64,000 bases of DNA, taken from assembly GCA_049840775.1 (NCBI GenBank), contig JASGJJ010000005.1, positions 1,453,762 through 1,517,761 of the forward strand, written 5' to 3'. The notes beneath the pieces are model-generated. The model saw nothing but the letters and a program-made list of their open reading frames with translations, did no database searches and was not told the origin of the DNA. The DNA comes from Tepidisphaeraceae bacterium. GTDB taxonomy: Bacteria > Planctomycetota > Phycisphaerae > Tepidisphaerales > Tepidisphaeraceae. The position numbers and the translations under genes were made by a program. Below are positions 6,540 to 63,598 of this stretch, one piece after another (position 1 is the stretch's first letter; every line of letters starts with the position of its first letter).

Positions 6540-6556
6540 AGATGGATCGGTGAGTG

Positions 6557-6636
6557 GGTAAGTCGTTGAGTCGGTGAGTCGTGAAGACGAAGTATCGAAG
6601 TCGTATTCTTACGACTCACCGACTCAACGACTTACC
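6557..6636. repeat. Long perfect palindrome (26-bp stem, 28-nt loop) in the rnhA-upstream spacer
   Basis: 6557-6582 GGTAAGTCGTTGAGTCGGTGAGTCGT is the exact reverse complement of 6611-6636. The stem can extend by GAAGACGA/TCGTATTC with 1 mismatch and a 2-nt bulge. Confidence 0.85.
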
Positions 6637-6653
6637 GACACAACGCGGCTGCT

Positions 6654-11356: not shown

Positions 11357-12508
11357 ATGCGACGTATCGCCCTTGCCGCCGCCACATTGCTGGCCCTGTC
11401 GGAGATTTCGTTCGGCCAAACGACCCGCACCGTCCCGGCCGGGCCGTTTCTTGAGCAGATCAAAACGAATTTTACCACGTGGGACCGTGACAAAGACGGC
11501 AAGCTTTCGTTCGACGAAATCGAACTCGCCTGCGCCGATCCGAAGGTGAAAGGCCCCACTGCCGCCGCCGCCGCGACGATGCGAAATCTCGCCAAACTGC
11601 GTGGCCTGACGCTCGCGGAATACACCGCCGCCCTGACAACGCTCACGGCCGAAGACCGCGACAACGTTAACAACTACGAAGCCTCATTCACGGCCGCCCT
11701 CAAAAAACTGAACGGCATCAATCGCCAGATTTTCCCGGCCGGCCTGCCGAAAGGGGATCAACTGGCGCAAGGCAAACTCGGCGACTGCTTCCTGCTGGTC
11801 GGCGTTGGCACGATGGCGCAGACGCAGCCGGAGCGGCTGAAGGCGCTGATCGAGCCGCTCCCGGGCGATAAGTTCGCCGTGAATTTTAAAGACGGCAAAC
11901 GCATCGAATTGCCCATGCCCACCGATGCCGAAGTGATCATCGGCAGTTCAACGCGCGGCGACGGCGTCTGGGGCAACGCGTTCGAAAAAGCCATCGGCCA
12001 ACGCTACCTCGACCGCCAATTGCCCGAAAAACGTGCGGTAACGCCGTACGCCTACATCGGCAAAGGCGGCCAGCCGAACGTGCCCGTCGCGATGATGACG
12101 GGCAAAAAGCTGAAGCGCGAAGGCTGTGAAATGTTCCAGAAGGGCACGCTCGACGCCGCCGGCCAGGCCAAGCGATTGGACGAAATCCGCGACGCCCTCG
12201 AAAACGCGTTCAAAGACGGCCGACTCGTCATCGGCGGCACGGCCCCGCTGAGCGGGCCGCAGGCGAAGGTTCGTGGCCTTTACTACAATCACAGTTATGG
12301 CGTCCTCAATTACGACCGCAAAACCGACGTCGTCACCTTCTGGAACCCGATGAGCAACGCCTTCACCCCCAAGGGAACGCCGGGCCTGGAGAACGGCTAT
12401 AAAACCAGCTACGGCCGGTTCGATTGTCCGCTGAAAGAGGCAGTCATGTGGTTCGGCAGTTTCTCGATCGAGCAGAACGAAAACGTCGCCGAAATCGGCC
12501 AAAAATAA
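11357..12508 (+). CDS. Secreted calpain-like (peptidase C2) cysteine protease with an N-terminal EF-hand
   Basis: The signal peptide is MRRIALAAATLLALSEISFG. A canonical EF-hand loop DRDKDGKLSFDE follows. The calpain triad context is AQGKLGDCFLLVG (Cys), YYNHSYGVLNYD (His) and VTFWNPMSN (Asn). Confidence 0.7.
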   Translation: MRRIALAAATLLALSEISFGQTTRTVPAGPFLEQIKTNFTTWDRDKDGKLSFDEIELACADPKVKGPTAAAAATMRNLAKLRGLTLAEYTAALTTLTAEDRDNVNNYEASFTAALKKLNGINRQIFPAGLPKGDQLAQGKLGDCFLLVGVGTMAQTQPERLKALIEPLPGDKFAVNFKDGKRIELPMPTDAEVIIGSSTRGDGVWGNAFEKAIGQRYLDRQLPEKRAVTPYAYIGKGGQPNVPVAMMTGKKLKREGCEMFQKGTLDAAGQAKRLDEIRDALENAFKDGRLVIGGTAPLSGPQAKVRGLYYNHSYGVLNYDRKTDVVTFWNPMSNAFTPKGTPGLENGYKTSYGRFDCPLKEAVMWFGSFSIEQNENVAEIGQK

Positions 12509-12546: not shown

Positions 12547-13674
12547 ATGGGTTTGGTAGAATACGAATACCCGGACGCCCTCCCCGCGGGCCCCGCACAC
12601 CGCCGAGGTGCGGGGCTGAACCCGGGCAACCGGTTCGAGTCGTACCGTCTTCACGTGCTCGGCGAAGAGCTGGACCGCCAGGCCGTCGAGCGCGAAGAAG
12701 CCGGCGGTAAAATTGTCATCCAGCGGCAGGTGTTCCGCGACCGAACACAGTCGATCATCAACCGTGTCGCCCAGACGTCTGACGTCCCCTTCGATTGGAC
12801 ACTCAACCCGTACCGCGGCTGCGAACACGGGTGCATCTACTGCTTTGCGAGGCCTTACCATGAGTATCTCGGATTTAGCAGCGGGATGGATTTTGAGACC
12901 AAGCTCATCGCCAAGCCGGACGCTCCGGACTTGCTGATCCGCGAACTCGCCAGCCCCAACTGGCGGGCCGAGCCGATCGTCATGTCGGCGATTACCGACA
13001 TCTACCAGCCGATCGAGCACAAGATGCGAATCGCCCGGAAATGCCTGCAAATCCTGGCCGATTGCGGGCAGCCGGTGTCGACGATGACCAAGAGCGCCCT
13101 GGTGCTTCGTGACACTGATTTGTGGGCGAAACTCGCCGAAAAGCGGGCCGGCCGCGTGACCGTGACACTGGTCACCCTCGACGCGGAGTTGGCCAAGCGG
13201 CTCGAGCCCCGTGCCAGTTCGCCGGCCGCCCGGTTGCGGGTCATCCGTGAGTTAACCGCGGCGGGCATTCCGGTGAGCGTGAATATTGCCCCGGTGATTC
13301 CGGGTTTAACTGACACGGAAATCCCCGCCATCCTGCGGGCCGTCGCTGAAGCCGGCGCACGGCGGGTCTTCTGGGTATTGCTACGATTGCCCTATCAGTT
13401 GAAAGCACTGTTTCTCGACTGGCTGCAGCGAAACGTTCACCCGCGGCGTGCGGCGAAGGTGGAATCGCTCATCCGCCAGTCCCGCGGCGGCAAGCTGTAT
13501 GACGCCAGCTACGCCACCCGCCGCCGCGGCACGGGGCCGATCGTTGATCAGATCCGCCAGACCTTCGAAATCCTCATCCGCCGCCACGGCCTCGACCAGG
13601 ACATGGCGCCGCTGTCCAACGCCAGTTTTAAGCCGCCCGTGCCGCCGGGCGCTCAACTTTCTCTATTCACTTAG
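12547..13674 (+). CDS. Radical SAM protein (PA0069 / SplB-like, COG1533 type)
   Basis: It uses ATG 12547 (MGLVEYEY..) inside ORF 12424..13674. It carries NPYRGCEHGCIYCFARP (CxxxCxxC) and a TIM-barrel-like remainder. Confidence 0.75.
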   Translation: MGLVEYEYPDALPAGPAHRRGAGLNPGNRFESYRLHVLGEELDRQAVEREEAGGKIVIQRQVFRDRTQSIINRVAQTSDVPFDWTLNPYRGCEHGCIYCFARPYHEYLGFSSGMDFETKLIAKPDAPDLLIRELASPNWRAEPIVMSAITDIYQPIEHKMRIARKCLQILADCGQPVSTMTKSALVLRDTDLWAKLAEKRAGRVTVTLVTLDAELAKRLEPRASSPAARLRVIRELTAAGIPVSVNIAPVIPGLTDTEIPAILRAVAEAGARRVFWVLLRLPYQLKALFLDWLQRNVHPRRAAKVESLIRQSRGGKLYDASYATRRRGTGPIVDQIRQTFEILIRRHGLDQDMAPLSNASFKPPVPPGAQLSLFT

Positions 13675-13739
13675 CCGCTTCGCTTGCGAAGCGCTTGGAA
13701 TGATTCCATCTCCAATCGCTTCGCAAGCGAAGCGGCTAA
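13671..13739. repeat. Nested palindrome (23-bp perfect arms) that overlaps a stop codon
   Basis: 13671-13693 TTAGCCGCTTCGCTTGCGAAGCG is the exact reverse complement of 13717-13739. Each arm is itself self-complementary (CTTCGC-TT-GCGAAG). The TAG at 13672-13674 is the radical SAM gene's stop. Confidence 0.85.
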
Positions 13740-13821
13740 ATCACTGGAAAAATCAGGGCATTTCGGAGGGCCGTATGTTAACTCATCATGTGGCAGTCAT
13801 TTTTGTTATCATGGTCGCCCT

Positions 13822-17316: not shown

Positions 17317-20300
17317 ATGGCGGTGCGCTTTGTCCTTGGTCGGGCGGGAACGGGCAAAACCCACTTTCTGCGCGACCGCCTCGTCGAGCACGTCACGCCC
17401 GATCCACTGGCCGCCAACGTCATTTACCTCGTGCCGCGGCAGGCGACGTTCAACACCCAACGGGCGATCGCCACCGACCCGCGGCTGGGCGGCTACACGA
17501 ATGTCCGGATTGTCGCGCCGGAAGACATTGCAGAAACGGCGTTCGTGGAAAACGGCCGCCCCGCCGGCGCGAAGCTCGACGCCGTCGGGCGGTCGCTGTT
17601 GATCGGGCATTTGCTCCGGCAGTCCGGCGACACGCTCGAACACTTCCGCCGCAGCGCCGGGCGGCCGGGGCTGGCGGGGGAAATCGACACGGCGTTCTCA
17701 GAGATCGAACGCTCCGGCCGCACGCCCGCCGAACTCATCGAAGCCGCCGAAAAAGCCTCCGACGGCGACACCGCGTCCCAGCAGCTCGCCCGAAAACTTC
17801 GCGACCTGGCGTCGCTTTACGCCGCCTACCAGGCGTTTTTGATCGAACACGAATTCGATCCCTTCAAACGTCAGACCGAAGCGCCCGCCGAACTGCGGGC
17901 CTGGCCGGAAGCGAAGAACGCCCTGCTGCTCGTCGACGATTTTTATGAGTTCACCGTGTACGAGCGGCAGATCATCGTGGCACTGGCGGCAGTGGCGCGG
18001 CAGACGTTCGTGGCGCTGATGCTGAACCCCGCCGCCCCGATCGTGGCCGACCCGAATCTGCTGCCGAACGAACTCGGCCTCTTCCGTCGCACCGAAGAGG
18101 CGTACCGCCGGCTGTATTTCGCGATGAAGTCCGAAGACGTGCCGGTCGACCCGCCGCTGCTTCTTTCGGCGGATCGGCGATGGAAAAGTGCCCCGCTGCG
18201 CGCCGTCGCGCACGCGATGGACGACGCCCCGCCGAAGGCGGATTCGCCGGACGACGAGGTGCGCCTTTGCCTGGCCGCCGATGACCGCGACGAAGTGGAA
18301 GTCGCCGCCCGTGAGGTCAAGCGGCTGCTCTTCCAAGGCTATCGCCAGCGTGATATCTGCGTGCTCGCGCTCGGCGGATTCGTATGCCGCGCGGTTTGAG
18401 GCGATTTTTCGTTCGCACGGCATTTCGTATTTCCTCGACCGCCGCCGCCCGGCGGTGCATCACCCGCTGCTCCGCACCGTGCAGGCGGTCGCGCAAATCG
18501 TCCAGACACGCTGGGCGCACGACGGCGTGTTCGACCTTCTCAACGCCGGCCTGGTGGGCATTCCGCCGCGAACGATCGACCTGCTCGCCGACTACGTGAA
18601 GCAACACCGGCTGACGGCGTCGGCGTGGATGCGAGACGACGCCTGGGCGTATCAACGCCGTGATGACGACGACAAGCACCGCCTCTTCAGCGACGGCGAT
18701 CTGGCAGACGTCAACCGTGCCGCCACCTTCCTTCGCCAAGCCATCAGTCCGCTGGTAACGCCGGCCGGGGTTGAAGGGCCGAGAAAGATATCGGCACACG
18801 TCTGCGACCTGCTCGCCGCGCTGGACCGCCTGAACGTTCGGCAGGCGATTGCCGACCGAATCGAGGCGTTTCAACAGGCCGCCGAGAAGCAGCAAATCGC
18901 CAACGCCGTCGAGCGCCGCGAGGAGGAAGAGCAGGTCTGGGCACAGTTTTCCGATCTGTGCGACCGCATGCACGACCTGCTCGGCAGCGTGGAAGTCAGC
19001 GGCAGTGATTTCTTCAAATTACTGCAGACATCGCTCGACCAACTCGACCTGGCCGTTGTGCCGCCGACGATCGATCAGGTGTTGGTCGGCTCGGTCGATC
19101 GCACACGCGTCGGCGAGCCGAAGGCGGTCATCCTCGTCGGCCTGAACGAGTGCGATTTTCCGCTCTGCCAGCAGGAACGGCCGATTCTCAATGACGCCGA
19201 TCGTGTGCGACTTCTCAACGCCGGCCTGGAAGTCGAGCCGCCGACGCGCACCTCGCTGCTGTTGGAACGATTCCTCGGCTACGTCGCGCTGACTCGCGCG
19301 TCAGAACGGCTGATCCTCATCCGCACCGCACGCGATTCGCACGGGCAGGATTCGCGCGCCGTCGCCGTTCTGGACGAAGGTCGCTCACGCACTGCCCGGC
19401 ATTACGCCGCAGGCGGTGAAGACGGGCGTCGACCGGATCACGACACCAGAGCAGGCGGTGTCACACGCCCTGCTATGGGCACGCCGGCAAACCGTCTCCA
19501 TCACCGGCGATGCCGATGCGGCGATCTATGAATGGATGCGGCAATCGACCGGCGATCGCCTGCAGCAAGTTCGCCGCCTCGCCTGGCCGGGCTTGAAACA
19601 TCTGAACCGCGCGACGCTGTCGAAAGAGATCGCGCCGAAGCTCTTCGGCTCGCCACTGGAAGGCAGCGTGTCGCGCTTCGAATCCTTCGCCGCGTGCCCG
19701 TTCCAGCACTTCGCCCGTTACGGCCTGCGGCTGCAGCGGCCGCCGACGCCGGAGTTTTCGGCGATGGACCTCGGCAATCTGTATCACGCCGTGCTCGACA
19801 ATATCGTTCACGACGCGATCCAGAAGAAGATCGACTTTGCCGCCGTCGACATCACGCCGGAAAACGTGCGGCAGGTTTCCCGCGAGTTGGCGAACGAAAT
19901 CGCCGACCAGCTTTTCCTCGCCGACGCGCAGCCGCTTCACGCTCGAACAACTTGACCGCACCGTCACCAAGCTGTTGCGTGCCCAGCAGGTGAGCTCCGG
20001 CATCGGCCGAATGCGGCCGGCGTTTACGGAGCTGGTCTTCGGCCCGAACGAAACGCTGCCCGCCGTCGAACTCAACACGCCGGCCGGCAATGCCGTGCGA
20101 ATCCGCGGGAAGATTGACCGCATCGACACCGATACGCACCAGTCCGCCTATTCAGTCATCGATTACAAACTCACCGGCGATTCGCTCGATTTCGGCTACG
20201 TGGTTCACGGCCTGATGTTGCAGCTGTTGACCTATCTGCTCGTCCTCCGCGAGCACGGCCCGACGCTGTTCGCCCGCCCGCTGCAGCCGGCGGCAGCGCT

Positions 20301-28562: not shown

Positions 28563-28566
28563 TTCA

Positions 28567-28638
28567 TTTGCGATTTTTGATTTGCGATTGGAATACGGGC
28601 CGACCTGTTTACCAATCGCAAATCGCAAATCAAAAATC
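28567..28638. repeat. AT-rich imperfect palindrome built from GATTTGC/GATTTTT heptamers, abutting the recN start
   Basis: GATTTGCGATTGG (28579-28591) pairs perfectly with CCAATCGCAAATC (28612-28624). The flanking heptamer units TTTGCGA/TTTTTGA on the left and GCAAATC/AAAAATC on the right are offset by one unit. The recN ATG is at 28639. Confidence 0.75.
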
Positions 28639-30341
28639 ATGCTGCGTGAACTTCACATCTCTAATCTCGCTGTGATCGCCGACGCGCGGATCGAACTGGC
28701 GTCGGGCCTGAATTGTTTCACGGGCGCGACGGGGGCCGGCAAGTCGCTGGTGATCGGCGCGATCGAGTTGCTGCTGGGCTTGCGGAGTCCGTCGGACATG
28801 CTGCGTCGCGGGCGCCGACGAAGGCCGGGTCAGTCGGCGTGTTCGATGTGAAGGACAAGCGGCTGCTGAAGCAGATCGAAGAAGCCTGCGACATGAAGCT
28901 GGCCGGCGACGGCGAGGTGCTGCTGACGCGTCGCCTCTACGCCAGCGGCCGAAGTGGCGTGAGCCTCAACGGCAGCCCGATCACGCTGGCGATGCTGAAA
29001 AACGTGGCCGAGACGCTTGTCGACGTTCACGGCCAGCACGACCACCAATTCCTGCTTCGGCCGAGCAATCAGATGGCGGTCATCGACGAGTTCGCCGGGC
29101 TCATGCCGTTGCGGGAATCGTACGGAAAAACCTTCGGCGAACTGGCGGCGATCAAGCACCGCCTCGCTGAACTCGCGGCCGGCACGCAGCTTGCGCGAAC
29201 AGCAGCTCGATTTTGTCCGCTACCAATTGGCCGAGCTTGATAAGGCCGATCCCAAACCCGGTGAATACGAGCAGCTAACGGGCCGGCGCAGGTGCTGAAC
29301 AACGTCGACCGCATCCGCAAAGACGCGGCCGGCGTTCACGGGGCCCTCTACGAAGCCGACGACGCCCTGCTCGATCGCCTGCAGACGATGGCCAACACGC
29401 TCGCCGAACTGGCCGGCGTCGATCCGCAACTGCTGGCGGTGGCGAACACGGTGAAAGAAGCGTCGGTGCAACTCGGCGAAGCGTCGTTCGACCTCGGCCG
29501 GTATTTGAATCGGCTGGAGATCGACCCGGAAGAACTCGCCGAGGTGAACGAACGGCTGAATGTCCTCAATCGCGTGCTGAAAAAATTCGGCCCGACGATT
29601 GACGATGCCCTCGCCAAGCGCGACGACCTGCGCAGCCAACTCACGTCACTCGAACGCGCCGGCGAAGACACGACCGAACTCACCGCGCGCATCAAACCGC
29701 TGACAGACGAGCTGACCAAGATCGGCAAAGAACTGTCGACGAAGCGGAAGAAGGCGGCCGCGGAGTTGAAGCCGCGGATCGAAAACCAGCTCGGTGCGCT
29801 CGGCATGGAGAAGGCGACGTTTTCCGTCGACGTCCGCCCCGCCGAGCCCGGGCCGACCGGGACCGACGACATCGAATTCCTCGTCCGCACGAACCCCGGC
29901 CTCGCCGAGTCGCCGTTGCGGAAGGTCGCCAGCGGCGGCGAAATGAGCCGAATCATGCTCGCGCTCAAAGGCGTGCTGGCCGCGGGCGACCGGGTGAGCG
30001 TGCTGGTGTTCGACGAAATCGACGCGAACATCGGCGGACGACTCGGGGCGATCATCGGCGAAAAACTGCGGTCGCTCGCGGAGCATCATCAGGTGCTGTG
30101 CATCACGCACTTGCCGCAGATCGCCTGCTACGCCGATCGGCATTTGACGGTTCGCAAAGAGCAGGACAAGGACAAAACCAAGACGACCGTCCGCGTCATG
30201 GACGGCGACGAACGCATCGAAGAAATCGCCGAAATGATCGGCGGCCACCGCATCACCGACACCACCCGCGCCCAGGCCCGCGAATTGCTCGACACCGCAC
30301 GAGGTGGCAAACCGGGAAGACGGAAAAAGCAGTCGGCGTGA
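28639..30341 (+). CDS. recN: DNA repair protein RecN; about 4 apparent frameshifts
   Basis: MLRELHISNLAVIADARIELASGLNCFTGATGAGKSLVIGA (Walker A) is in ORF 28582..28851. The gene continues in ORFs 28713..29240, 29017..29298 and 29292..30341 (..ASGGEMSRIMLALK.. signature, VLVFDEIDANIGG Walker B). Frame changes lie at ~28808, ~28838, ~29195 and ~29290. Confidence 0.85.
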
Positions 30342-30413
30342 TGTAGGGGCGACGCCTGCGTCGCCCGATCGGCCCGATTGACGTTCGCGGGCGACGCAGG
30401 CGTCGCCCCTACA
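30342..30413. repeat. Nested-palindrome repeat, copy A (GTAGGGGCGAC-N6-GTCGCCC family)
   Basis: 30342-30366 TGTAGGGGCGACGCCTGCGTCGCCC is the exact reverse complement of 30389-30413 GGGCGACGCAGGCGTCGCCCCTACA. Each arm is itself a hairpin (GGGCGACG/CGTCGCCC). The 22-nt spacer is ~17/22 identical to that of copy C. Confidence 0.9.
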
Positions 30414-30415
30414 AA

Positions 30416-30832
30416 ATCAGGTAATGCTCGCCGGCTCGGGCGGCTTGGCGCATCGAGCCATTCGGGAATTTGCTGCACTTCGCCGTTTCGGTCGACGCAG
30501 GCGATCGTCGTCGACGCTTCGGCCAGTAAAGTCGGGCCGCGTTTGAGTTCGTAGGTGTGGTCGTAGCGGACGTGTGTTCGCTTTACCAGTTTGGTGACGA
30601 GTGCTAATTCATCGTCGTACCGCGCCGGCGAGCGGTATTTCACCTCGGCCTTGATGACGACGAAGAAAATGCCGTTCTTTTCCAGCTCGGCGTAGCTGTG
30701 CCCGAGCGACCGCAGCAGCTCCACGCGGCCGATCTCGAAGTATTGCAGATACCGGCTGTGATGCAGATACCCCATGCCATCGACTTCCGGGTAGCGGACG
30801 CGCAAATTCACGGTCTGTTCGAGCAGTGACAT
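30416..30832 (-). CDS. Acyl-CoA thioesterase (4HBT / YbgC-like hotdog fold); the 3' end is uncertain
   Basis: ATG 30832 gives MSLLEQTVNLRVRYPEVDGMGYLHHSRYLQYFEIGRVELL..IFFVVIKAEVKYRSPARYDDEL..ACVDRNGEVQQIPEWL. The track frame (ORF 30128..31408) has no stop and reads through repeat copy A. The other two frames stop at 30416-30418 (TGA) and 30409-30411 (TAG), so a 3'-terminal indel is likely. Confidence 0.65.
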
Positions 30833-37170: not shown

Positions 37171-37254
37171 CTGTAGGGGCGACGCAGGCGTCGCCCGGTC
37201 GCTGCGAACATGCACAACTCCGCGGAGCGGGCGACGCAGGCGTCGCCCCTACAG
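37171..37254. repeat. Nested-palindrome repeat, copy B
   Basis: CTGTAGGGGCGACGCAGGCGTCGCCC (37171-37196) pairs with GGGCGACGCAGGCGTCGCCCCTACAG (37229-37254). The arms are inverted except for the central GCAGGC, which has the same orientation in both. The spacer is 32 nt. The copy lies between convergent stops at 37160 and 37262. Confidence 0.9.
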
Positions 37255-37261
37255 AAGACAT

Positions 37262-38778
37262 TCAATCAGCGGCGATTCTCGTGACCGTGTCGCGGCGTTC
37301 GTACACCGTGTTGCCACCGAAGACCTTCACGATTGCGTAGTCGGCCTGAACGGTCGACTGGATGTCGCGCGACGCCGCCAGCCACGCCGTGCCGCGCGCG
37401 GGGCGGCCGGAGAATTCGACGTTCCGCTCGCGCACCAGTTTCCGCCCAGCCGGGCGTGTCCGTTGGCAGCACCACGAACTTCGGACGGCGATTGTGGAGG
37501 TCATCACACAGCATGCCGCCGTATTTCGTCGGCGACGTGTCGTCGTTCGAAAAGATGAACGTCAGCGGAATGCGCGAGCCGGGTTTCAAGTCGGTCTCGA
37601 CAAGGATGCGGGCGTTTTCGTCAATCCAGACCGAATCGCCGGCGGCGGTGTTCGATTTGATGTAGTCGATCGCCGCCAGGCGGTCAGCCGGTGTCTTCGT
37701 CGAGAGCATCGCGAAGTACGCCCAGAAAACGGCAATGATCAGCACCGGCACGGCATTGACGACGAGCGGGAACGCCTTCACCCGCCGCGGCACGAGGCCG
37801 AACAGCAAGGCGGCGGGCGCGGTGATCGGCAGGAAGTGGTAGCCGTACATGCGGCCCTGCATCGCCACGCCGATGACTTCGACCGCGAACCAGATCAAGG
37901 CGAACCACAGCACCGGCGTGTGCAGATTCGATTCCCGCGGTTCCGCCCAGCGGCGTTCGCCGAGCGACCGCATCACAAACGGCAGGCCGAGCAGGAACAG
38001 GATCGCCAGCGCCTTAAAGCCGACCAGTTGCCAGTGCCAGACACTGTTTTGATTGTAGGTCCGAACCTGCTGGTAGACGGCCGGCAGTGCGGTGATCGCG
38101 CCGCTGAAGACGAGGTAGCCGAGGACGATCATCGCCGGGATCAGCACGCCGACCGCCATCGCCGCGGCGAAACGGAAGCGGGTTTTGGCGGTCAGTTCAC
38201 GCCAGCTGACGACGACCAACCCCGCCGCCGCTAAAACGGCCAGCGCGTTCGGCTTGGCCATCGCGGCAATGCCCGCGACAAGGCCGATCAGAAACGCGTC
38301 GCGCGTGAGTCGGTATTTGCACAGTCGCACGAACAGCCAGGCGGCCACGGCGCACAGCGGCACGGTGAGGTGTTCGAGTTTAAACGCGGAGAAGACGACC
38401 AGCGGGAAGCTCATCCACGCCGCCGCCATCACCGCTGTTGGCAGCAGGCTGCTGCGATGCACCTCGGCAGCCGCTTTGGCGATCGCCCAGACGCCCACAC
38501 ACGCCAGCACCACGCTCAAGAGTGCGTAGCCCGGCCACCACGCGCCGATCAGCTGGTACGGCAGCCACATCACCAGGCTGACGGTCGGCAGCTTGTTGTC
38601 GATCAGCTCAATGCCGATGCGGCCGCCCTGCCCGAGCATCTTGCCCATGTAGACGAACAACTCCATGTCGCCGTCGTACAGCGTGGCGAACGTGCAGCAA
38701 CGCAGCGCCGAGACAAAACGCCAGCACGCAACCGGCGGCCGTGACGGCAGGCTTGGCGACGTTGAGGGAGCGGTCCAC
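37262..38778 (-). CDS. Polytopic membrane glycosyltransferase-like protein (GT39/ArnT/PMT-like); two apparent frameshifts; start uncertain
   Basis: ORF 37266..38819 has more than 10 TM helices (..MAKPNALAVLAAAGLVVV..). The C-terminus continues in ORF 37262..37507 after ~37440 (..TDTPGWAE|LVRERNVEFSGRPARGTAW..). The N-terminal TM helix (..KPAVTAAGCVLAFCLGAALL) lies in the frame of ORF 38608..39012 (~38690). A candidate GTG start is at 38778. Confidence 0.5.
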
Positions 38779-38963
38779 AGTCTGCCTATCGGCCAAATTC
38801 CGGGCGATCTTGCCCGCAAAGTAGTCTGCGGCGGAGAAACACGACAAAAACGGCGAATGCGGTATGATTATCGCCCCATGCACGAGCGTTAGCCGCCCCT
38901 CGCCGCCCTCCCGCCGATGTCGCTTTGCGATTCGAAGTGCCTTTTTCATTTGCCGGACTCGAT

Positions 38964-41730: not shown

Positions 41731-41753
41731 GGCGGTTCAACTTCTGTCGGGTG

Positions 41754-41840
41754 CCACGGTGTTGTACTCAACGCCGTAGTGGGGGTGAAGGCGCGTTTTC
41801 CTTTCGGTGCCCCACCACGGCGTTGAGTACAACGCCGTGG
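41754..41840. repeat. Long palindrome (31-bp arms, 29/31 complementary)
   Basis: 41754-41784 CCACGGTGTTGTACTCAACGCCGTAGTGGGG pairs with 41810-41840 CCCCACCACGGCGTTGAGTACAACGCCGTGG. One position is T.G and one is A.C. The spacer is 25 nt. It lies between the dus stop (41860) and the start at 41730. Confidence 0.85.
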
Positions 41841-41859
41841 TACCCGGAGAAATTCTGCA

Positions 41860-42978
41860 TCACTCGATGCCGCAGCCGGCGTCGGCGGGGTTGGCGTTGA
41901 CTTCATCGGCGGCGTCGGGCGCGGGCCAGACTCCGGGGCCGTCGGCGGCGTACCACTTGTCGAGCACGCGGGCCCAGTCGGGAATGCTGGCGACATTGAC
42001 GAATTCTTTCTTCACCCAATCGGCCTGCGGGTGGAAGCGGGCGTACTTGATGCCCTGCTTCCGCATGCGCCGACCGGTGGTTTGCTCGCCGTGGATTTTT
42101 AACGATTCGTCCCAGTGTTCGCGAAGGGCTTGGCGTTGCTCGGCGACGGTGGGCGGCTGAAGGGTTTGCTGTAGGGGCGACGCCTGCGTCGCCCGGTCGG
42201 CCGTGTTGACGCTCGCGGGCGACGCAGGCGTCGCCCCTACAAAGAAGAGCTTCGCCGCGTCGCGGAAAATCCACGGGTTGCCGATCGCGCCGCGGGCGAT
42301 CCAGACGATGTCGACGCCGGTTTCGCGTTTCATGCGGACGGCATCCTCGGCGGTGAAGACGTCGCCGCTGCCGAGGATGGTGCGCGTCGGGTATTGCCGT
42401 TTGATCTCGGCGAGCGCCGCCCAATCCGCCCGGCCGTTGTATTTGGCTTCGACACTGCGGGCGTGAACGCGGGCGGCGGCGTAGCCGAGGTTCCAGGCCT
42501 CGTCTAGCAGGCCGTAGAGCGTGTCGTGAGATTCGTTGTCTGAAAACGTTCGCCGCAGACTCACAGTGAGCGTGGCGTTCGGCAGACGATCGCGGACGGC
42601 CCGGAGGATGCCCAGGCCCCGCGGCTGGTCGCGTAACATGTGGCCGCCGCGGGCCTTGTTTTTAATCTTCTTCACCGGACAGGCGAAGTTCAGGTCGATC
42701 ACGTCGTAACCGGCGTTGTGCAAAATGGCGGCGGCGGGCGCGACGGTTTCGGGCTCGCTGCCGATGACCTGGCCGGCGGTCGGGTGGTCTTCGTCGTTGA
42801 TGTCGATGGAATTTTTGAGCCCCTGCCCGCCGTTAAGCATGATTGTGTCAAGCAAGGCTTCGGTGACGGCGTACGGACAGCCCCGCCGCCGGGCGACAAG
42901 ACGCATCGCGCGGTCGCTGTATCCGGCAAGGCCGGCCTGGCAGAACGGGGCGGAAAGCTCGATCGGTCCAATTCTCAC
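41860..42978 (-). CDS. tRNA-dihydrouridine synthase carrying an in-frame repeat-derived insert
   Basis: A candidate GTG start is at 42978 (VRIGPIELSAPFCQAGLAGYSDRAMRLVARRRG) within ORF 41860..43059. Motifs include VIDLNFACPVKKI, TVSLRR, VHARSVEAKY and ARGAIGNPWIF. A C-terminal helical domain follows ..QTLQPPTVAEQRQALREHWDESL.. Confidence 0.8.
   Translation of the reverse strand: MRIGPIELSAPFCQAGLAGYSDRAMRLVARRRGCPYAVTEALLDTIMLNGGQGLKNSIDINDEDHPTAGQVIGSEPETVAPAAAILHNAGYDVIDLNFACPVKKIKNKARGGHMLRDQPRGLGILRAVRDRLPNATLTVSLRRTFSDNESHDTLYGLLDEAWNLGYAAARVHARSVEAKYNGRADWAALAEIKRQYPTRTILGSGDVFTAEDAVRMKRETGVDIVWIARGAIGNPWIFRDAAKLFFVGATPASPASVNTADRATQASPLQQTLQPPTVAEQRQALREHWDESLKIHGEQTTGRRMRKQGIKYARFHPQADWVKKEFVNVASIPDWARVLDKWYAADGPGVWPAPDAADEVNANPADAGCGIE
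42169..42242. repeat. Nested-palindrome repeat, copy C (inside the dus coding sequence)
   Basis: CTGTAGGGGCGACGCCTGCGTCGCCC (42169-42194) pairs with GGGCGACGCAGGCGTCGCCCCTAC (42217-42240). On the minus strand it translates in frame as ..FFVGATPASPASVNTADRATQASPLQQ.. Confidence 0.9.
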
Positions 42979-42992
42979 GACGGCATGGTACT

Positions 42993-43095
42993 GGATGTTT
43001 TGATGTTTGGTGTTTTGTATTGGGATGTTTTGGAAGCAGACGATGACGCGTCTTCCCAAACATCAAAACACCAAACACAAAACAACATTCCAACC
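42993..43095. repeat. Imperfect T/G-rich versus A/C-rich palindrome in the dus-dacB divergent spacer
   Basis: The left arm is GGATGTTTTGATGTTTGGTGTTTTGTATTGGGATGTTTTGGAAG (42993-43036). The right arm is CTTCCCAAACATCAAAACACCAAACACAAAACAACATTCC (43052-43091). The shared cores TGTTTGGTGTTTTG and GATGTTT.GGAAG are inverted, and the left arm has a ~6-nt insertion. Confidence 0.7.
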
Positions 43096-47334: not shown

Positions 47335-47532
47335 TCGCCATATTTTCCCCGAGTTGTCCGATTAGCCGCCGACTTCGTCGGCGTTATTGAGTGGCCCTTC
47401 CACCTCGCGAGCAAAGCTCGCGGCTAAGCGAAGTTCGATTCTCGGCGTCATCCGTCGACCACTTTCTTGCGTAACCGTTGGCATTCGGCCGGCCGGCCGT
47501 TTACATTTCCGGGCCCTACGGAGCCGACACGC

Positions 47533-48420
47533 ATGTACCGAACCTGGGTGATCACCCGCCACACCTTCATTGAAGCCATCAGCCAGCCGATCTATTCGCT
47601 GCTGCTGAGCATCGGTGCGGCCATCCTGCTGATCTTCGCCTTCCTGCCGTTTTTCACGCTCGGCGAAGACACCGTCATGTTCACCTCCGTCGGGCTGGAC
47701 GTCGTCACCGTGCTGGTGCTGGTCGTGACGCTGTTCGCCACCAGCCGGTCGGTTCACGAAGAAATCGAAGACCGGACGATGCTCACCCTCATGAGCAAGC
47801 CGGTCAGCCGGTTGGAAGTGATCCTCGGGAAATATCTCGGCCTGTTCCTTTCGGCCGGCATGGCGATCGCGGTGCTGGGCGCCTTGCTCTGCCTGTGCAC
47901 GTGGTTCCGCATCCCGACCGATTACATGCTCAACAACCGCTCGATCGACGAGCGTGAAATCAACCGCCTGTTCAACATGCGGACGAGCATCCTCGCGGGC
48001 CTGTACCCGAGCCTGCTGTTGGTCTGGCTGCAGATCGGCACGCTGGCGGCGATCAGTGTGGCGATTTCGACGCGTTTCTCGCTCGTCGTGAACCTGCCGG
48101 CCGTTATCCTGCTGTACATCGCCGGCAACCTCACGCGGTTCCTCAGCGACGCCGTCATCAATAGCTCGATTGTCACCAAAAGCCTGGCGTTTCTCGTCTC
48201 GACGCTTCTGCCGTTCCTGGAAGTGTTCGACATGAAGAAGTACACGGTCTTCTCCAAGCTCGGCATGGACTCCGGCGACACCAGCCACGTCTTCACGTCG
48301 ACCTATATCTGGACGAACGTCGGCCTGTCCGTGCTGTACGCGGCCTTCTACGCCGCCTTCGCGCTCACCGTTGGCATCCTGATCTTCCGCAAGCGCGAAC
48401 TCGGCGGCAACGAAGGCTGA
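47533..48420 (+). CDS. ABC-2-type transporter permease (no adjacent ATPase gene)
   Basis: It uses ATG 47533 (MYRTWVITRHTFIEAISQPIYSLLL..) inside ORF 47467..48420. It has about 6 TM helices and ..EEIEDRTMLTLMSKPVSR.. Confidence 0.65.
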   Translation: MYRTWVITRHTFIEAISQPIYSLLLSIGAAILLIFAFLPFFTLGEDTVMFTSVGLDVVTVLVLVVTLFATSRSVHEEIEDRTMLTLMSKPVSRLEVILGKYLGLFLSAGMAIAVLGALLCLCTWFRIPTDYMLNNRSIDEREINRLFNMRTSILAGLYPSLLLVWLQIGTLAAISVAISTRFSLVVNLPAVILLYIAGNLTRFLSDAVINSSIVTKSLAFLVSTLLPFLEVFDMKKYTVFSKLGMDSGDTSHVFTSTYIWTNVGLSVLYAAFYAAFALTVGILIFRKRELGGNEG

Positions 48421-48429
48421 TCTTGCCGC

Positions 48430-48455
48430 GGGCGATAGGTATGTCGCCCTTACAG
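48430..48455. repeat. Half-copy (single arm) of the nested-palindrome family, 'ATGT' variant
   Basis: GGGCGATAGGTATGTCGCCCTTACAG compares with arm GGGCGACATGTATGTCGCCCCTACA of copy D. It sits between the convergent stops at 48420 and 48457. Confidence 0.7.
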
Positions 48456-48456
48456 G

Positions 48457-49872
48457 TCATTGGCCGAACAAATCCATCTGCTTGGAATCCTTGGCGGTCG
48501 ACTCGATCGTGCCATCGCTGAGTTGGGTGATCAGCAGATCGCCGGGTTTGACGTCGGCGGGGCTCAGGACGGTTTTGCCGTTCTTTAATCGCGTGATCGA
48601 ATAGCCGCGTTTCAGGACGGCCCGGGGGTCGAGGGCGGTCAGTTCCCGGCTTAACGCTTCCAGCCGCCCCGCCGCGAGGGCGAGGCGCAGCTTCCGGGCG
48701 TGCCCCAGGCCTGCTGAGAGGCGGGCGAGACGTTCCTTCGCCTGGGAGAGCCGGGCCGCCGGGTGTTGGGCGTGCAGGCGGTTTTCGTGCTTCGCCAGGC
48801 GATTTCGGCAGGTGCCGACGACGCCCGTCAGGGCCATTCGCAGGTCACGCTGACGCTCATCGAGGACTTGTTTCAGCCGATTCAGCCGATCGGTCGGCCG
48901 GCGGAAGACTTCGTGACGCTCGATCGCCGTGAGCCGGTGCCGGTGGTTCGTGACCAGCTGCCGGAGTGAACGTGTAAGCCGCGTCGAGGCGTTATCCAGG
49001 GCGTCGGCAGCGCGTCGCCAGTTCGCGACGGCGACCTGGGCGGCCTCGGTCGGCGTGTGGGCGTGGTAGTCGGCGGCGAGGTCGGCGATCGAAACATCGA
49101 CCTCGTGCCCGATGCCGGTAATCACCGGCACGCGGCAGGCACGCACGGCGCGGGCGACGGCCTCTTCGTTGAACTCCCACAAGTCTTCCAGCGACCCGCC
49201 GCCCCGGCCGAGCAGGACGACGTTTGCATCCTTCGGCGTGATCGCCAGCAACGCCTCGGCGATTTTCGCCGCCGAGCCGACGCCCTGCACGGGCACGTGA
49301 ATCACACGCGGCGTCAGCCACGGTGTCCGCTGAAAGACCTTCAGCATGTCCTGCAACGCGGCGGCCTGCTTACTGGTGATCAGCACGATCTTCTGCGGGT
49401 ACGCCGGCAGCGGCCGCTTGATGTCGGGATCGAACAGCCCTTCGTTTTCCAGTTTCAGCCGCAATTGCGTGAAACGAATTTCCAATGCCCCGCGGCCGAG
49501 GGGCGTAAGGGTTTGGCAGTAAAGCTGATACCGCCCGCGCTGCTGGTAGACCCGCACGCCGCCGGATACCAGCACTTCCATGCCGTCCACCGGCTTGGCC
49601 AGCAATCGGGCGGCGGCGTCGCGGAACATCACGCAGTCGATGCAACTCTTGGCGTCTTTGAGCGTGAAGTAATAATGACCGCTCGCGGCATGGGCGTTGA
49701 GATTGCTGATCTCGCCACGCACAAGGACCGATGCCGGCACGCCCTGTTTGATGGCGATGTCGATCCGCGCCGTCAGGTCGGCGACACTGATCGCGCGGTC
49801 CAGCCGTGCGTCATCCGCCTCGGCCGACGGCTTGGTGACGCGACTGCGAAAATCGAAGAACGATTCGGGCAT
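48457..49872 (-). CDS. xseA: Exodeoxyribonuclease VII large subunit
   Basis: It uses ATG 49872 (MPESFFDF..) inside ORF 48457..49974. The OB-fold reads ..VRGEISNLNAHAASGHYYFTLKD.., the catalytic region reads ..LGRGGGSLEDLWEFNEE..PVITGIGHEVD.., and a long coiled tail follows. Confidence 0.88.
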   Translation of the reverse strand: MPESFFDFRSRVTKPSAEADDARLDRAISVADLTARIDIAIKQGVPASVLVRGEISNLNAHAASGHYYFTLKDAKSCIDCVMFRDAAARLLAKPVDGMEVLVSGGVRVYQQRGRYQLYCQTLTPLGRGALEIRFTQLRLKLENEGLFDPDIKRPLPAYPQKIVLITSKQAAALQDMLKVFQRTPWLTPRVIHVPVQGVGSAAKIAEALLAITPKDANVVLLGRGGGSLEDLWEFNEEAVARAVRACRVPVITGIGHEVDVSIADLAADYHAHTPTEAAQVAVANWRRAADALDNASTRLTRSLRQLVTNHRHRLTAIERHEVFRRPTDRLNRLKQVLDERQRDLRMALTGVVGTCRNRLAKHENRLHAQHPAARLSQAKERLARLSAGLGHARKLRLALAAGRLEALSRELTALDPRAVLKRGYSITRLKNGKTVLSPADVKPGDLLITQLSDGTIESTAKDSKQMDLFGQ

Positions 49873-49877
49873 TCTCT

Positions 49878-49947
49878 TGTAGGGGCGACATACATGTCGC
49901 CCGTGTTTGCCGAACGAGCAGCAGGCGACATGTATGTCGCCCCTACA
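49878..49947. repeat. Nested-palindrome repeat, copy D (GACATACATGTC variant)
   Basis: TGTAGGGGCGACATACATGTCGCCC (49878-49902) pairs with AGGCGACATGTATGTCGCCCCTACA (49923-49947), with 1 mismatch. It fills the mgtE-stop to xseA-start spacer. Confidence 0.9.
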
Positions 49948-49951
49948 AATC

Positions 49952-51397
49952 CTAGCCGCCGTGCGTCGGCACAAGCCATTTGAACATCAGCGTCGCCAGG
50001 CCGAGCAGGGCGAAGAAGCCGCCGACGTCGGTGACGGTCGTCGCGAAGATCGTAGCACTCTGGGCCGGGTCAAAGCCCAGGCGTTTCATGATGAACGGGA
50101 TGATTGCCCCGCTGGCACAGGCGAGCGTGTGGTTGATGATTAAGGCCGCACAAACCAGCAGGCCGAGCACCGGACTGCCCTGCCAGAGCATGGCCACCAG
50201 TGCCGTCACAACACCGCAGATCACGCCCGTGAGGATGCCGACAATGAGTTCGCGGCGGACGACGTGGAAGAGGAGCTTTTTGTCGACATTCCCCGTCGCC
50301 AGCCCGCGCACGGCGACGGCCATCGCCTGCGCGCTGGCGTTGCCGCCCATGCCGGCGATGATCGGCATGTAAATCGCGAGCACGGCAATTTTGCTGATCG
50401 TCTCCTCGAACACGCCGACCACGCTGCCGGCCAAAAACGCCGTGCCGAGGTTAATCAGCAGCCACCATACCCGGCTTTTAAAGCTGAAATACCACGGGCT
50501 GTTCAGACGTTCCTCGGCACCGGCACCGAACATCTTCAGCACGTCTTCGGTGGCTTCTTCGGTGACGACGTCGATGACGTCGTCCATGGTGATCAGCCCG
50601 ACCAGACGGGCGTCGTCGTCCACCACGGGGACGGCCAGGTAGCCGGTTTCCCGCATGAACTTGGCGACGTCCTCCTGGTCCATGCCGGCCGGCACGCTGC
50701 GGACGCCCTTGATCATCAGATCCCGCAGCCGCCGGCTCGGCTTGGCGAGAATGAGGTCACGCATCGACAGCACGCCGACCAAATGCCCCATGCGGTCGAT
50801 CACGTAAACGTAGAACATCTGCTCCAGCTCTTCGCTGAGCTTTCGGAGCATCTGGATGGCGTCGTCGACGGTGAGGTACTCGTAGAGCGCGGTCACCTGC
50901 GTCGTCATGATGCCGCCGGCGGTGTCGGGGGCGTAGCTTTCGAGATGACGCGTTTCGGCGCGTTTGGCGTGGTCGAGCTCGGCGAGAAGCTCGTCGTGGG
51001 CCTCGGCGTCGACGAGGCCGAGGATGTCGACGCGGTCGTCCGGGTCCATCTCCGCCAGCACCATGGCGGCTTCGACGCGGTTCATCCCCAGCACCAGCGC
51101 GGCGGCCGTGCCGGCGTCGACTTCCTTGAAAATCGACGCCGCCGTCTTCGGGTCAAGGTATTCACTGACGGCGACCGCGCGGTCGATAGGGAGTTTTTCT
51201 AAAACGAGCGCGCCCTGCCGGCGCGGCGCTTCCTCGATCATTTCACTCAAGACCCGCGGCGGGCTGATGAGCAGTTCCTCGGTCGTGACCGCATCAATCG
51301 ATAGGACAGAGGGTTCCAACGAATCGACGGCGGCCTCTGTGGCCTCGATGTCGGCGTTGGCGGGGTCGGGCGAAATTGGTTCGTTCGGGTCGGCCAT
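49952..51397 (-). CDS. mgtE: Magnesium transporter MgtE
   Basis: The ORF is 481 aa. It has the MgtE N-domain, two CBS repeats (..VIDRMGHLVGVLSMRDL.., ..VVDDDARLVGLITMDDV..) and a TM domain with ..MPIIAGMGGNASAQ.. Confidence 0.9.
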   Translation of the reverse strand: MADPNEPISPDPANADIEATEAAVDSLEPSVLSIDAVTTEELLISPPRVLSEMIEEAPRRQGALVLEKLPIDRAVAVSEYLDPKTAASIFKEVDAGTAAALVLGMNRVEAAMVLAEMDPDDRVDILGLVDAEAHDELLAELDHAKRAETRHLESYAPDTAGGIMTTQVTALYEYLTVDDAIQMLRKLSEELEQMFYVYVIDRMGHLVGVLSMRDLILAKPSRRLRDLMIKGVRSVPAGMDQEDVAKFMRETGYLAVPVVDDDARLVGLITMDDVIDVVTEEATEDVLKMFGAGAEERLNSPWYFSFKSRVWWLLINLGTAFLAGSVVGVFEETISKIAVLAIYMPIIAGMGGNASAQAMAVAVRGLATGNVDKKLLFHVVRRELIVGILTGVICGVVTALVAMLWQGSPVLGLLVCAALIINHTLACASGAIIPFIMKRLGFDPAQSATIFATTVTDVGGFFALLGLATLMFKWLVPTHGG

Positions 51398-51639
51398 GCG
51401 GTCGGTGGCTTAGGTCGCACGAATCATAGAAGCGTTGTCGTCCGCCGCAACCCTTGCTAAAACGCTGGACTCAGGACACGTTTTGTCCTAACATTAACCG
51501 TACCCGTCCGGGGCTGTTTCAGAAGCCCCGGGTGGACGATTCGGCCGGGTTTGGCCGATACGTCGGTCATGACGCACGGAGGCGTCGGCCCACCCGCCGC
51601 CCCCGCACCGACCGATTTTCGACACTGAGGAGACGTTCG

Positions 51640-63475: not shown

Positions 63476-63483
63476 TGCGTTAA

Positions 63484-63570
63484 CCGCCGAGACACCAAGG
63501 GGCCAAGGACGAAAAAGAATAGGATCAAATGTCCTGCTTCTCTTTTCTTGGCCCCTTGGCGTCTTGGCGG
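63484..63570. repeat. Palindrome (24-bp arms, 22/24 complementary)
   Basis: CCGCCGAGACACCAAGGGGCCAAG (63484-63507) pairs with CTTGGCCCCTTGGCGTCTTGGCGG (63547-63570). The spacer is 39 nt and AT-rich. Confidence 0.8.
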
Positions 63571-63598
63571 TGAATATCCTGATTCGGAGATCTTGATT

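Follow-up and report, generated by a model that had tools for sequence, protein, structure and literature searches.

Repetitive extragenic palindromic (REP) sequences of the GTAG type form short hairpins, with a published range of 5-13 bp for the stem and 2-20 nt for the loop. Di Nocera, De Gregorio & Rocco reported in 2013 that GTAG-REP dimers located inside known genes encode 20-30 residues (PMC3733652). In the same study intragenic REPs were found to be abundant in Opitutus terrae, a bacterium of the Planctomycetes-Verrucomicrobia-Chlamydiae (PVC) group, and tRNA pseudouridine synthases were among the host proteins. The inserts were proposed to lie in flexible linkers or loops, and in Xanthomonas recB different REPs occur at about the same site (PMC3733652). 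Host proteins of the Rickettsia palindromic elements (RPE), which include tRNA-modification enzymes such as TruB, are likewise thought to stay functional (PMC3733652). For TnpA_REP subclass 2.4, which corresponds to group 4 of the REP-associated tyrosine transposases (RAYTs), Quentin et al. described REPs whose foot is GT[AG]G, whose stem base consists of three G-C pairs and which include "double-foot" variants, and a hairpin carried within the transposase genes has already been described there (2018, PMC6006769). Here we analyze a 64-kb stretch of a Tepidisphaeraceae genome (contig JASGJJ010000005.1, referred to as the window; 62.6% G+C), in which a REPIN-like inverted pair of REPs, our copy C, is read in frame within the gene of a tRNA-dihydrouridine synthase (dus).

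A first-pass annotation made from the sequence alone had proposed that an extragenic-type palindrome survives in this enzyme as an insert of about 24 residues. Our analysis supports this proposal and refines it to a net gain of 21 residues, which is one of many such events at this site. The features concerned are the following:

41860..42978, minus strand: gene of a tRNA-dihydrouridine synthase with TIM barrel and C-terminal helical domain, 372 aa from the GTG start at 42978
42170..42241, minus strand: copy C, REPIN-like, 72 bp, two inverted GTAG-REP hairpins separated by 20-22 nt
42217..42240, minus strand: 5' REP unit of copy C on the gene strand, consisting of GTAG, GGGCGAC, the loop GCCTGC and GTCGCCC, 0 mismatches
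42171..42194, plus strand: second REP unit of copy C, inverted, 0 mismatches

The open reading frame (ORF) 41860-43059(-) matches PF01207 (E=3.6e-40), and its product has the architecture of a Dus protein, a TIM barrel followed by a helical domain. As the annotation had stated, copy C (42170-42241) lies inside this ORF and is translated without a stop, as ...GNPWIFRDAAKLFF[VGATPASPASVNTADRATQASPLQ]QTLQPPTVAEQRQAL... (codons 42169-42240). The peptide VGATPASPASVNTADRATQASPLQ corresponds to Dus residues 247-270 and directly follows GNPWIFRDAAKLFF. The element itself measures 72 bp (24 codons) including its T...A flanks and not 70. The true start of dus is almost certainly the GTG at 42978, and a protein database gene call of 372 aa is identical to the product from this codon. 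The longer ORF, with a TTG start, passes through another palindrome, I15 (42999-43082), and its N-terminal extension is spurious, created by this palindrome just upstream of the GTG. A second unrelated palindrome, with 37-nt arms, was observed beside dus at 41748-41846, where 130 nt separate dus from the downstream 89-aa ORF; in L082-L084 the same spacer comprises at most 18 nt. Neither of these two palindromes was present a second time in the sequences compared. On the gene strand near copy C we found no internal intrinsic terminator, and three matches on the plus strand were at chance level. A search against Rfam gave no match at the gathering score anywhere in the window.

Of the three frames through the REPIN arms two are open, and the TAG in the foot closes the third. 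In dus, the frame used gives small and polar residues (VGATPASP...ATQASPLQ). Copies B (82 bp) and E (70 bp) of the same family would break the frame inside a gene; therefore, length and frame filter which copies can survive there. In an AlphaFold model of the window Dus built with 111 orthologues (predicted local distance difference test, pLDDT, 84.9; predicted template modelling score 0.86) residues 247-270 are mostly coil with a pLDDT of 53-59 and are placed between the helices 235-247 and 278-296, while both domains are intact. The best Foldseek matches of this model were 1vhn and E. coli DusB (6ei9), with target-normalised template modelling scores of 0.88-0.89. Using HMMER against PDB sequences, the insert was located between residues 263 and 265 of 6ei9, in the interdomain linker DTG-E-LLPP of E. 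coli DusB. These results agree with the place in the linker before the C-terminal helical domain that had been suggested earlier, and with a surface loop, which had been named as a check. Dus with the insert is most likely made in full length and active.

Palindromic repeats can confuse assemblers, and Dus enzymes are dispensable in laboratory E. coli, so that together with the very strong mRNA stem an assembly error or a decaying, non-functional dus gene has to be considered. We regard this explanation as very improbable. The ORF is intact across 372 codons with a G+C content at third codon positions of 0.81, which is typical for coding sequence here, and all motifs that are invariant across the 111 orthologues are kept. 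The length of the element preserves the frame. Moreover, independent assemblies from three sources, among them JGI (L082) and ENA (L084), carry the same REP family at the same codon boundary, which makes an artefact unlikely.

The element belongs to a dispersed family. A search for the motif GTAGGGGCGAC-N6-GTCGCCC identified 9 REP units in the window, compared with a chance expectation of 0.02, and none of 100 shuffled sequences reached 9. The units are arranged as four inverted doublets (A, B, C and E) and one solo unit, D. Each of the nine starts with GTAG (GTAA in one case) followed by GGGCGAC...GTCGCCC, which gives a GTAG foot, a GC-rich stem of 7-8 bp (GGGCGAC/GTCGCCC) and a loop of 4-6 nt. 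All full copies have T...A at their flanks, so that the inverted repeat extends to TGTAG...CTACA. The arms of copy C are 26 nt long, 100% complementary and 20 nt apart. Copy A has the same size (72 bp, 26-nt arms); its arms are identical to those of C and the two elements share 67/72 positions (93%), which confirmed the view that the dispersed copies and the coding one are the same element. The spacers match in 17/22 positions between A and C and in 19/22 between C and the dus copy of L084; those of B and E are unrelated to A/C and differ in length. As single-stranded DNA the 72 bases fold at -42.6 kcal/mol (z=-10.9), and for the stretch of mRNA around copy C the folding energy is -86.7 kcal/mol (z=-9.9). 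The other members of the family are:

30342..30413: REPIN copy A, 72 bp, its first base directly after the stop of the gene 29265-30341 on the plus strand
37172..37253: REPIN copy B, 82 bp with a 32-nt spacer, just 3' of the stop codon that ends the gene 37266-38867 on the minus strand
48430..48453, minus strand: unit D, a solo REP with 2 mismatches, flanked by the convergent genes for an ABC-2 permease (47428-48420, plus strand) and xseA (minus strand)
49878..49947: REPIN copy E, 70 bp, loop ATACAT/ATGTAT, between mgtE (49952-51409, minus strand) and xseA (48457-49800, minus strand)

Copies A, B, D and E either have a stop codon only a few bases away or separate convergent genes, which is the classic placement of REPs. 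An extragenic habit was also seen in metagenome contigs retrieved by the exact REP motif (720 kb): 126 of 128 motif groups were non-coding and 2 were read in a convincing coding frame. None of the 128 groups placed the family in a dus gene outside Tepidisphaeraceae. Variants of loop and stem keep their pairing, as in copy E and in the arms of L084 and L010. In the latter two (L084:808-899 and L010:10755-10848) the arms differ from each other, GGGCGAG-GCNNGC-CTCGCCC versus GGGCGAC-GCNNGC-GTCGCCC, and each still forms a perfect hairpin. These sequences suggest that the single REP hairpin, rather than the long stem of the doublet, may be the unit that is maintained. In copy B the loop is GCAGGC in both arms, so that, compared with copies A and C, one of the two loops has the opposite orientation.

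Copy A had been described as intergenic. This holds with respect to the plus-strand gene ending at 30341, but on the minus strand a thioesterase-like ORF (30131-30832) reads through it. The 4HBT_2 domain of this ORF ends at about residue 128 and no stop occurs before copy A, which is translated as VGATPASPANVNRADRATQASPL, the peptide predicted for the equivalent frame, followed by 69 more codons antisense to the neighbouring gene. The tail may be a C-terminal extension created by the REPIN or the consequence of a displaced stop.

For comparison we used 111 close orthologues, 80 species representatives and the DNA of 84 dus loci, in which further REP copies were searched for in flanks of +/-10 kb. 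The closest relatives are labelled Tepidisphaeraceae (Planctomycetota), and the gene order Peptidase_S13, dus, 89-aa ORF and CxxCxxCC protein is conserved. The nearest orthologue, P0003/L081, has the same neighbourhood and is 94% identical over 305 conserved columns outside the linker. Its linker, RDAAKLWRDPTTVLR, comprises 15 aa, compared with 36 aa in the window, and excising the 72 bp from the window dus leaves an in-frame linker of 12 aa. Orthologues lacking the roughly 24 residues, whose existence the annotation had made a test of its claim, are therefore present. Filled and empty alleles could be interpreted in pairwise alignments for three close pairs only, and these showed that about 9 nt had been replaced. 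Similarity does not discriminate orthology from paralogy among the dus copies, since copy C is 93% identical to its paralogue A and about 92% identical to the dus copy of L084.

We consider it likely that copy C is a REPIN-type element from a dispersed and normally extragenic family which inserted into a short ancestral Dus linker and has been tolerated there as a passenger, the linker being permissive. In the mechanism we propose, a Y1 (HUH) REP-associated transposase, of a class tied elsewhere to this very type of REP, would mobilise the family through single-stranded hairpin DNA, and a REPIN would have landed in the linker LLxDPxAxLx that joins the TIM barrel to the C-terminal helical tRNA-binding domain. 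The copy would survive because its 72 nt are a multiple of three, because the frame used is free of stops and encodes small and polar residues, and because an interdomain loop exposed to solvent takes up about 21 additional disordered residues with neither domain being disturbed. That the linker gathers palindromes of many families would be due to its unusual permissiveness and to a ratchet, in which in-frame copies are hard to shed: a harmless loss would require an in-frame deletion confined to the linker, and such copies may therefore be long-lived.

The insertion in the window is not an isolated case. In 43 of the 111 close orthologues the linker comprises 13-17 aa with the consensus LLxDPxAxLx, and in the other 68 (61%) it comprises 18-61 aa; among the species representatives 28 of 80 (35%) have extended linkers. 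In the DNA, the long inserts form inverted repeats whose arms match over 17-32 bases each, and baseline linkers score at most 10. At least six insert families without sequence similarity to one another were found:

GTAG-GGGCGAC family: dus linkers of the window, L006, L009, L010, L082 and L084
GTAGGGCCAGCG... family: dus linkers of L066 and L069
GTGGCATGGTCGTCTCGCCC... family: dus linker of L004
GGACTTAGGACTAAGG... family: dus linker of L008
CCCTCTCCC...GGGAGAGGG family: dus linkers of L013 and L070
GAGGGGCGAGGGGCAAGG... family: dus linker of L020

For five of these families copies outside dus exist, in the same locus or in other genomes, which identifies them as dispersed repeats and not as local oddities. 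The palindrome GGACTTAGGACTAAGG of the L008 linker, for instance, has at least two more copies within 8 kb of the same locus (11545-11606 and 17898-17989). On a neighbour-joining tree computed without the linker columns, parsimony on the linker states requires a minimum of at least 21 empty/filled changes and 43 family changes, with an empty root. Filled and empty sister pairs were P0001/P0003 (bootstrap 100%), P0002/P0004 (100%) and P0008/P0005 (97%).

Instead of repeated insertion, a few ancient insertions might have been diversified later in place by nesting, recombinational replacement, decay and exchange of filled and empty alleles. Nested and compound structures speak for this. In L084 an 18-nt perfect palindrome lies in the spacer, in L009 the left arm is split by a small palindrome, the inserts of L006 and P0072 correspond to 1.5-2 copies and L013 has a length of 73 aa. 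From the examples of L084, L009, L006 and L013 it follows that palindromes already in place can draw in or gather others, and REPs are known targets of other mobile elements (PMC3733652). Besides, the boundaries coincide in the filled alleles of the window, L082 and L084, whose spacers are homologous. Against this explanation, the empty alleles keep the ancestral DPxAxL that is common to distant outgroups, and thus are not deletion products. Furthermore, the clades have different points of insertion, located about 6 to 13 residues behind GNPWIF, and the families are dissimilar in sequence. Altogether, we consider few insertions with later diversification rather improbable as an account of the whole pattern. 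Among the remaining long linkers, 22 of 19-61 aa have kept their length after the palindrome decayed, which is consistent with long persistence.

In order to compare the linker with other sites, strong palindromes (at least 20 matched bases per arm) were counted in 1.29 Mb consisting of the window and the 84 dus loci. Of 87 such palindromes 9 are held by dus linkers, which corresponds to an occupancy of 9/85 (10.6%). In other genes 1-2 in-frame cases were found among about 1,200 (approximately 0.1-0.2%); the remaining read-through candidates lie upstream of true starts or in spurious ORFs. The occupancy of a typical intergenic spacer is about 6.5%, an estimate that assumes about one gene per kb. 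The REP family of the window occurs in five dus linkers and at one other site in the 1.23 Mb outside the window. The sole convincing non-dus case in frame is a palindrome with 25 matched bases per arm at L044:4902-4979, read as …RLAAPLGGRVPGEIYGSPRPPSGAAKQ… in a BioA-like class-III aminotransferase (PF00202, E=1.7e-109). At L026:1133-1238 a palindrome with 40-nt arms lies in a histidine-kinase gene whose kinase frame is apparently lost downstream, and this may be a disruptive insertion or a faulty assembly.

These numbers bear on a further explanation, according to which the site is actively targeted as a landing pad or is positively selected because the mRNA hairpin or the longer flexible linker is beneficial. 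Possible benefits would be a translational pause for domain-wise folding, altered docking of the tRNA or altered mRNA stability. Per gene, the linker is enriched about 60-90-fold over its neighbours, and it is occupied at least as often as intergenic spacers in spite of the constraint on frame. The number of unrelated families and of events, the identical boundaries in the well-supported sister pairs, the linkers which stay long after decay of the palindrome and the very stable mRNA hairpin fit this explanation as well. On the other hand, about 40-65% of the orthologues and the inferred ancestor manage with a linker of 13-16 aa, and sequence, length and exact position of the inserts vary widely without a common target motif. 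Within the 128 motif groups mentioned above, the REP family of the window was absent from dus outside the clade. A conserved structure in empty linkers that the palindromes could have displaced was rejected, as RNAalifold predicted 0 pairs across 27 empty-site orthologues. Targeting or selection as the reason for the insertions therefore appears unlikely to us. The linker as a true hotspot, meaning a preferred target of REP/REPIN integration or a place where a strong mRNA hairpin or longer tether was repeatedly favoured by selection, we put forward as a tentative possibility. If it were true, the dus linker would represent an "intergenic spacer inside a gene" and a natural, phylogenetically replicated system for the landing of REPINs and for the effects of in-frame palindromes on translation and domain folding.

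Several observations weigh against the tolerated-passenger explanation that we favour. The junction is not clean, because about 9 nt of the ancestral linker (D-P-x codons) are missing, so that relative to L081 a net 63 nt (21 aa) and not 72 were gained. Alignments of filled linkers with their nearest empty counterparts showed neither a target-site duplication nor a common target motif. The mRNA is able to form a 26-bp GC-rich stem inside the dus ORF. In the three filled/empty sister pairs the boundaries are identical, which suggests site specificity or recombinational spread. Moreover, an occupancy of 10.6%, at or above the approximately 6.5% of intergenic spacers, is hard to obtain from passive tolerance alone, since only stop-free insertions with a length of 3n can survive. 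Tolerance explains the survival of the copy, but it does not obviously explain the excess of hits or the shared boundaries. Finally, neither the window nor the 84 dus loci yielded a RAYT or any other transposase in tblastn with the RAYT-like protein of L119.

Relatives of this query were confined to metagenome loci, and an approximate sequence of E. coli YafM as a second tblastn query gave only noise. RAYT-like genes carrying the GTAG-GGGCGAC hairpin are present at L119:1628-2314 on the plus strand and in L091, L106, L144, L124 and L129, all of them contigs from metagenomes, with unknown taxa. With E=5e-16 and 58.9 bits, the match to NF047646 is below the curated cut-off of 80. In these genes the hairpin lies in frame between the HuH motif and the region of the catalytic Tyr; it is mostly read as VGATxxSPL, and in L106 as CRGDRPVAPT from the other frame.

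The window contains further long inverted repeats unrelated to the REP family, with arms of 28-42 nt, at 6548-6645, 13658-13752, 28563-28638 and 63480-63574. Including the REPINs, palindromic elements occur about once per 6 kb. Searched against all sequence compared, the palindromes I1, I2, I3, I5, I9 and I15 of the window matched only themselves.

The findings have consequences for annotation, as repeats termed "extragenic" can be coding. Low-complexity segments resembling VGATPASP...ATQASPLQ in GC-rich bacterial proteins are translated repeats and not domains. A single linker of 13-16 residues has been colonised at least about 20 times by at least six palindromic families. The filled and empty sister alleles, which are about 94% identical in the conserved columns outside the linker, provide matched natural pairs that bear on the neutrality of the insert, on the choice and survival of REPIN sites and on the effect of a 26-bp GC stem on translation.

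Compared with known systems, the palindromes of Rickettsia are similar in that they lie in frame in housekeeping genes and are read as an extra peptide (RPE; Ogata et al. 2000, cited in PMC3733652). However, the sequence families are unrelated, and RPEs are mostly longer and restricted to Rickettsia, whereas the element described here is a GTAG REP dimer in a free-living planctomycete of the Tepidisphaeraceae. With bacterial MITEs (miniature transposable elements with inverted repeats; reviewed in PMC10969869) it shares the small size, the non-autonomous nature, the terminal inverted repeats and the occasional in-frame location in genes. In contrast to these, the flanks of A, B, C and E have only T...A in common, the window copies show no direct target-site duplication, and the arms themselves are GTAG-footed hairpins. 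The missing duplication and the hairpin arms therefore indicate a REP/Y1-transposase type and not a MITE of the DDE-transposase type.

The arrangement of two inverted REPs around a short spacer, forming one long hairpin, is that of the REPINs (Bertels & Rainey; PMC8049555, PMC5581495), and copying of the doublet as one unit would be expected to yield similar spacers such as those of A and C. An extragenic location is part of the description of REPINs, though, B and E have unrelated spacers, and the defining single-copy RAYT flanked by the same REPs was not found in the 64-kb window. The REP motif of the window is also located inside the RAYT-like genes described above, in line with TnpA_REP subclass 2.4. 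The GT[AG]G feet, the three G-C pairs (GGG/CCC) at the stem base and the "double-foot" variants of the element agree with this subclass as well. The RAYT-like genes differ in that they are found on unrelated metagenome contigs and match NF047646 below its cut-off.

The closest resemblance is to the intragenic GTAG REPs (PMC3733652). Like those, the element has a GT[AG]G foot and a short GC-rich stem-loop, forms inverted dimers and is dispersed in mostly extragenic copies downstream of ORFs. Their catalogue comprises neither a dihydrouridine synthase host nor a VGAT...SPL peptide, does not cover Tepidisphaeraceae and does not describe a colonisation of one linker by many families. A full-text literature search yielded no paper linking dihydrouridine synthase to REP or palindromic inserts, and among 13 candidates no other host protein of the REPIN peptide matched at E<=10, with the 48-aa concatenate of the C and A peptides as the only query. 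In-frame REP dimers of 20-30 residues have thus already been documented in PMC3733652 and among the RPEs, and our study adds dus as a host gene and the Tepidisphaeraceae as a clade, together with a scale of recurrence at one linker which, as far as we found, is apparently undescribed in the literature.

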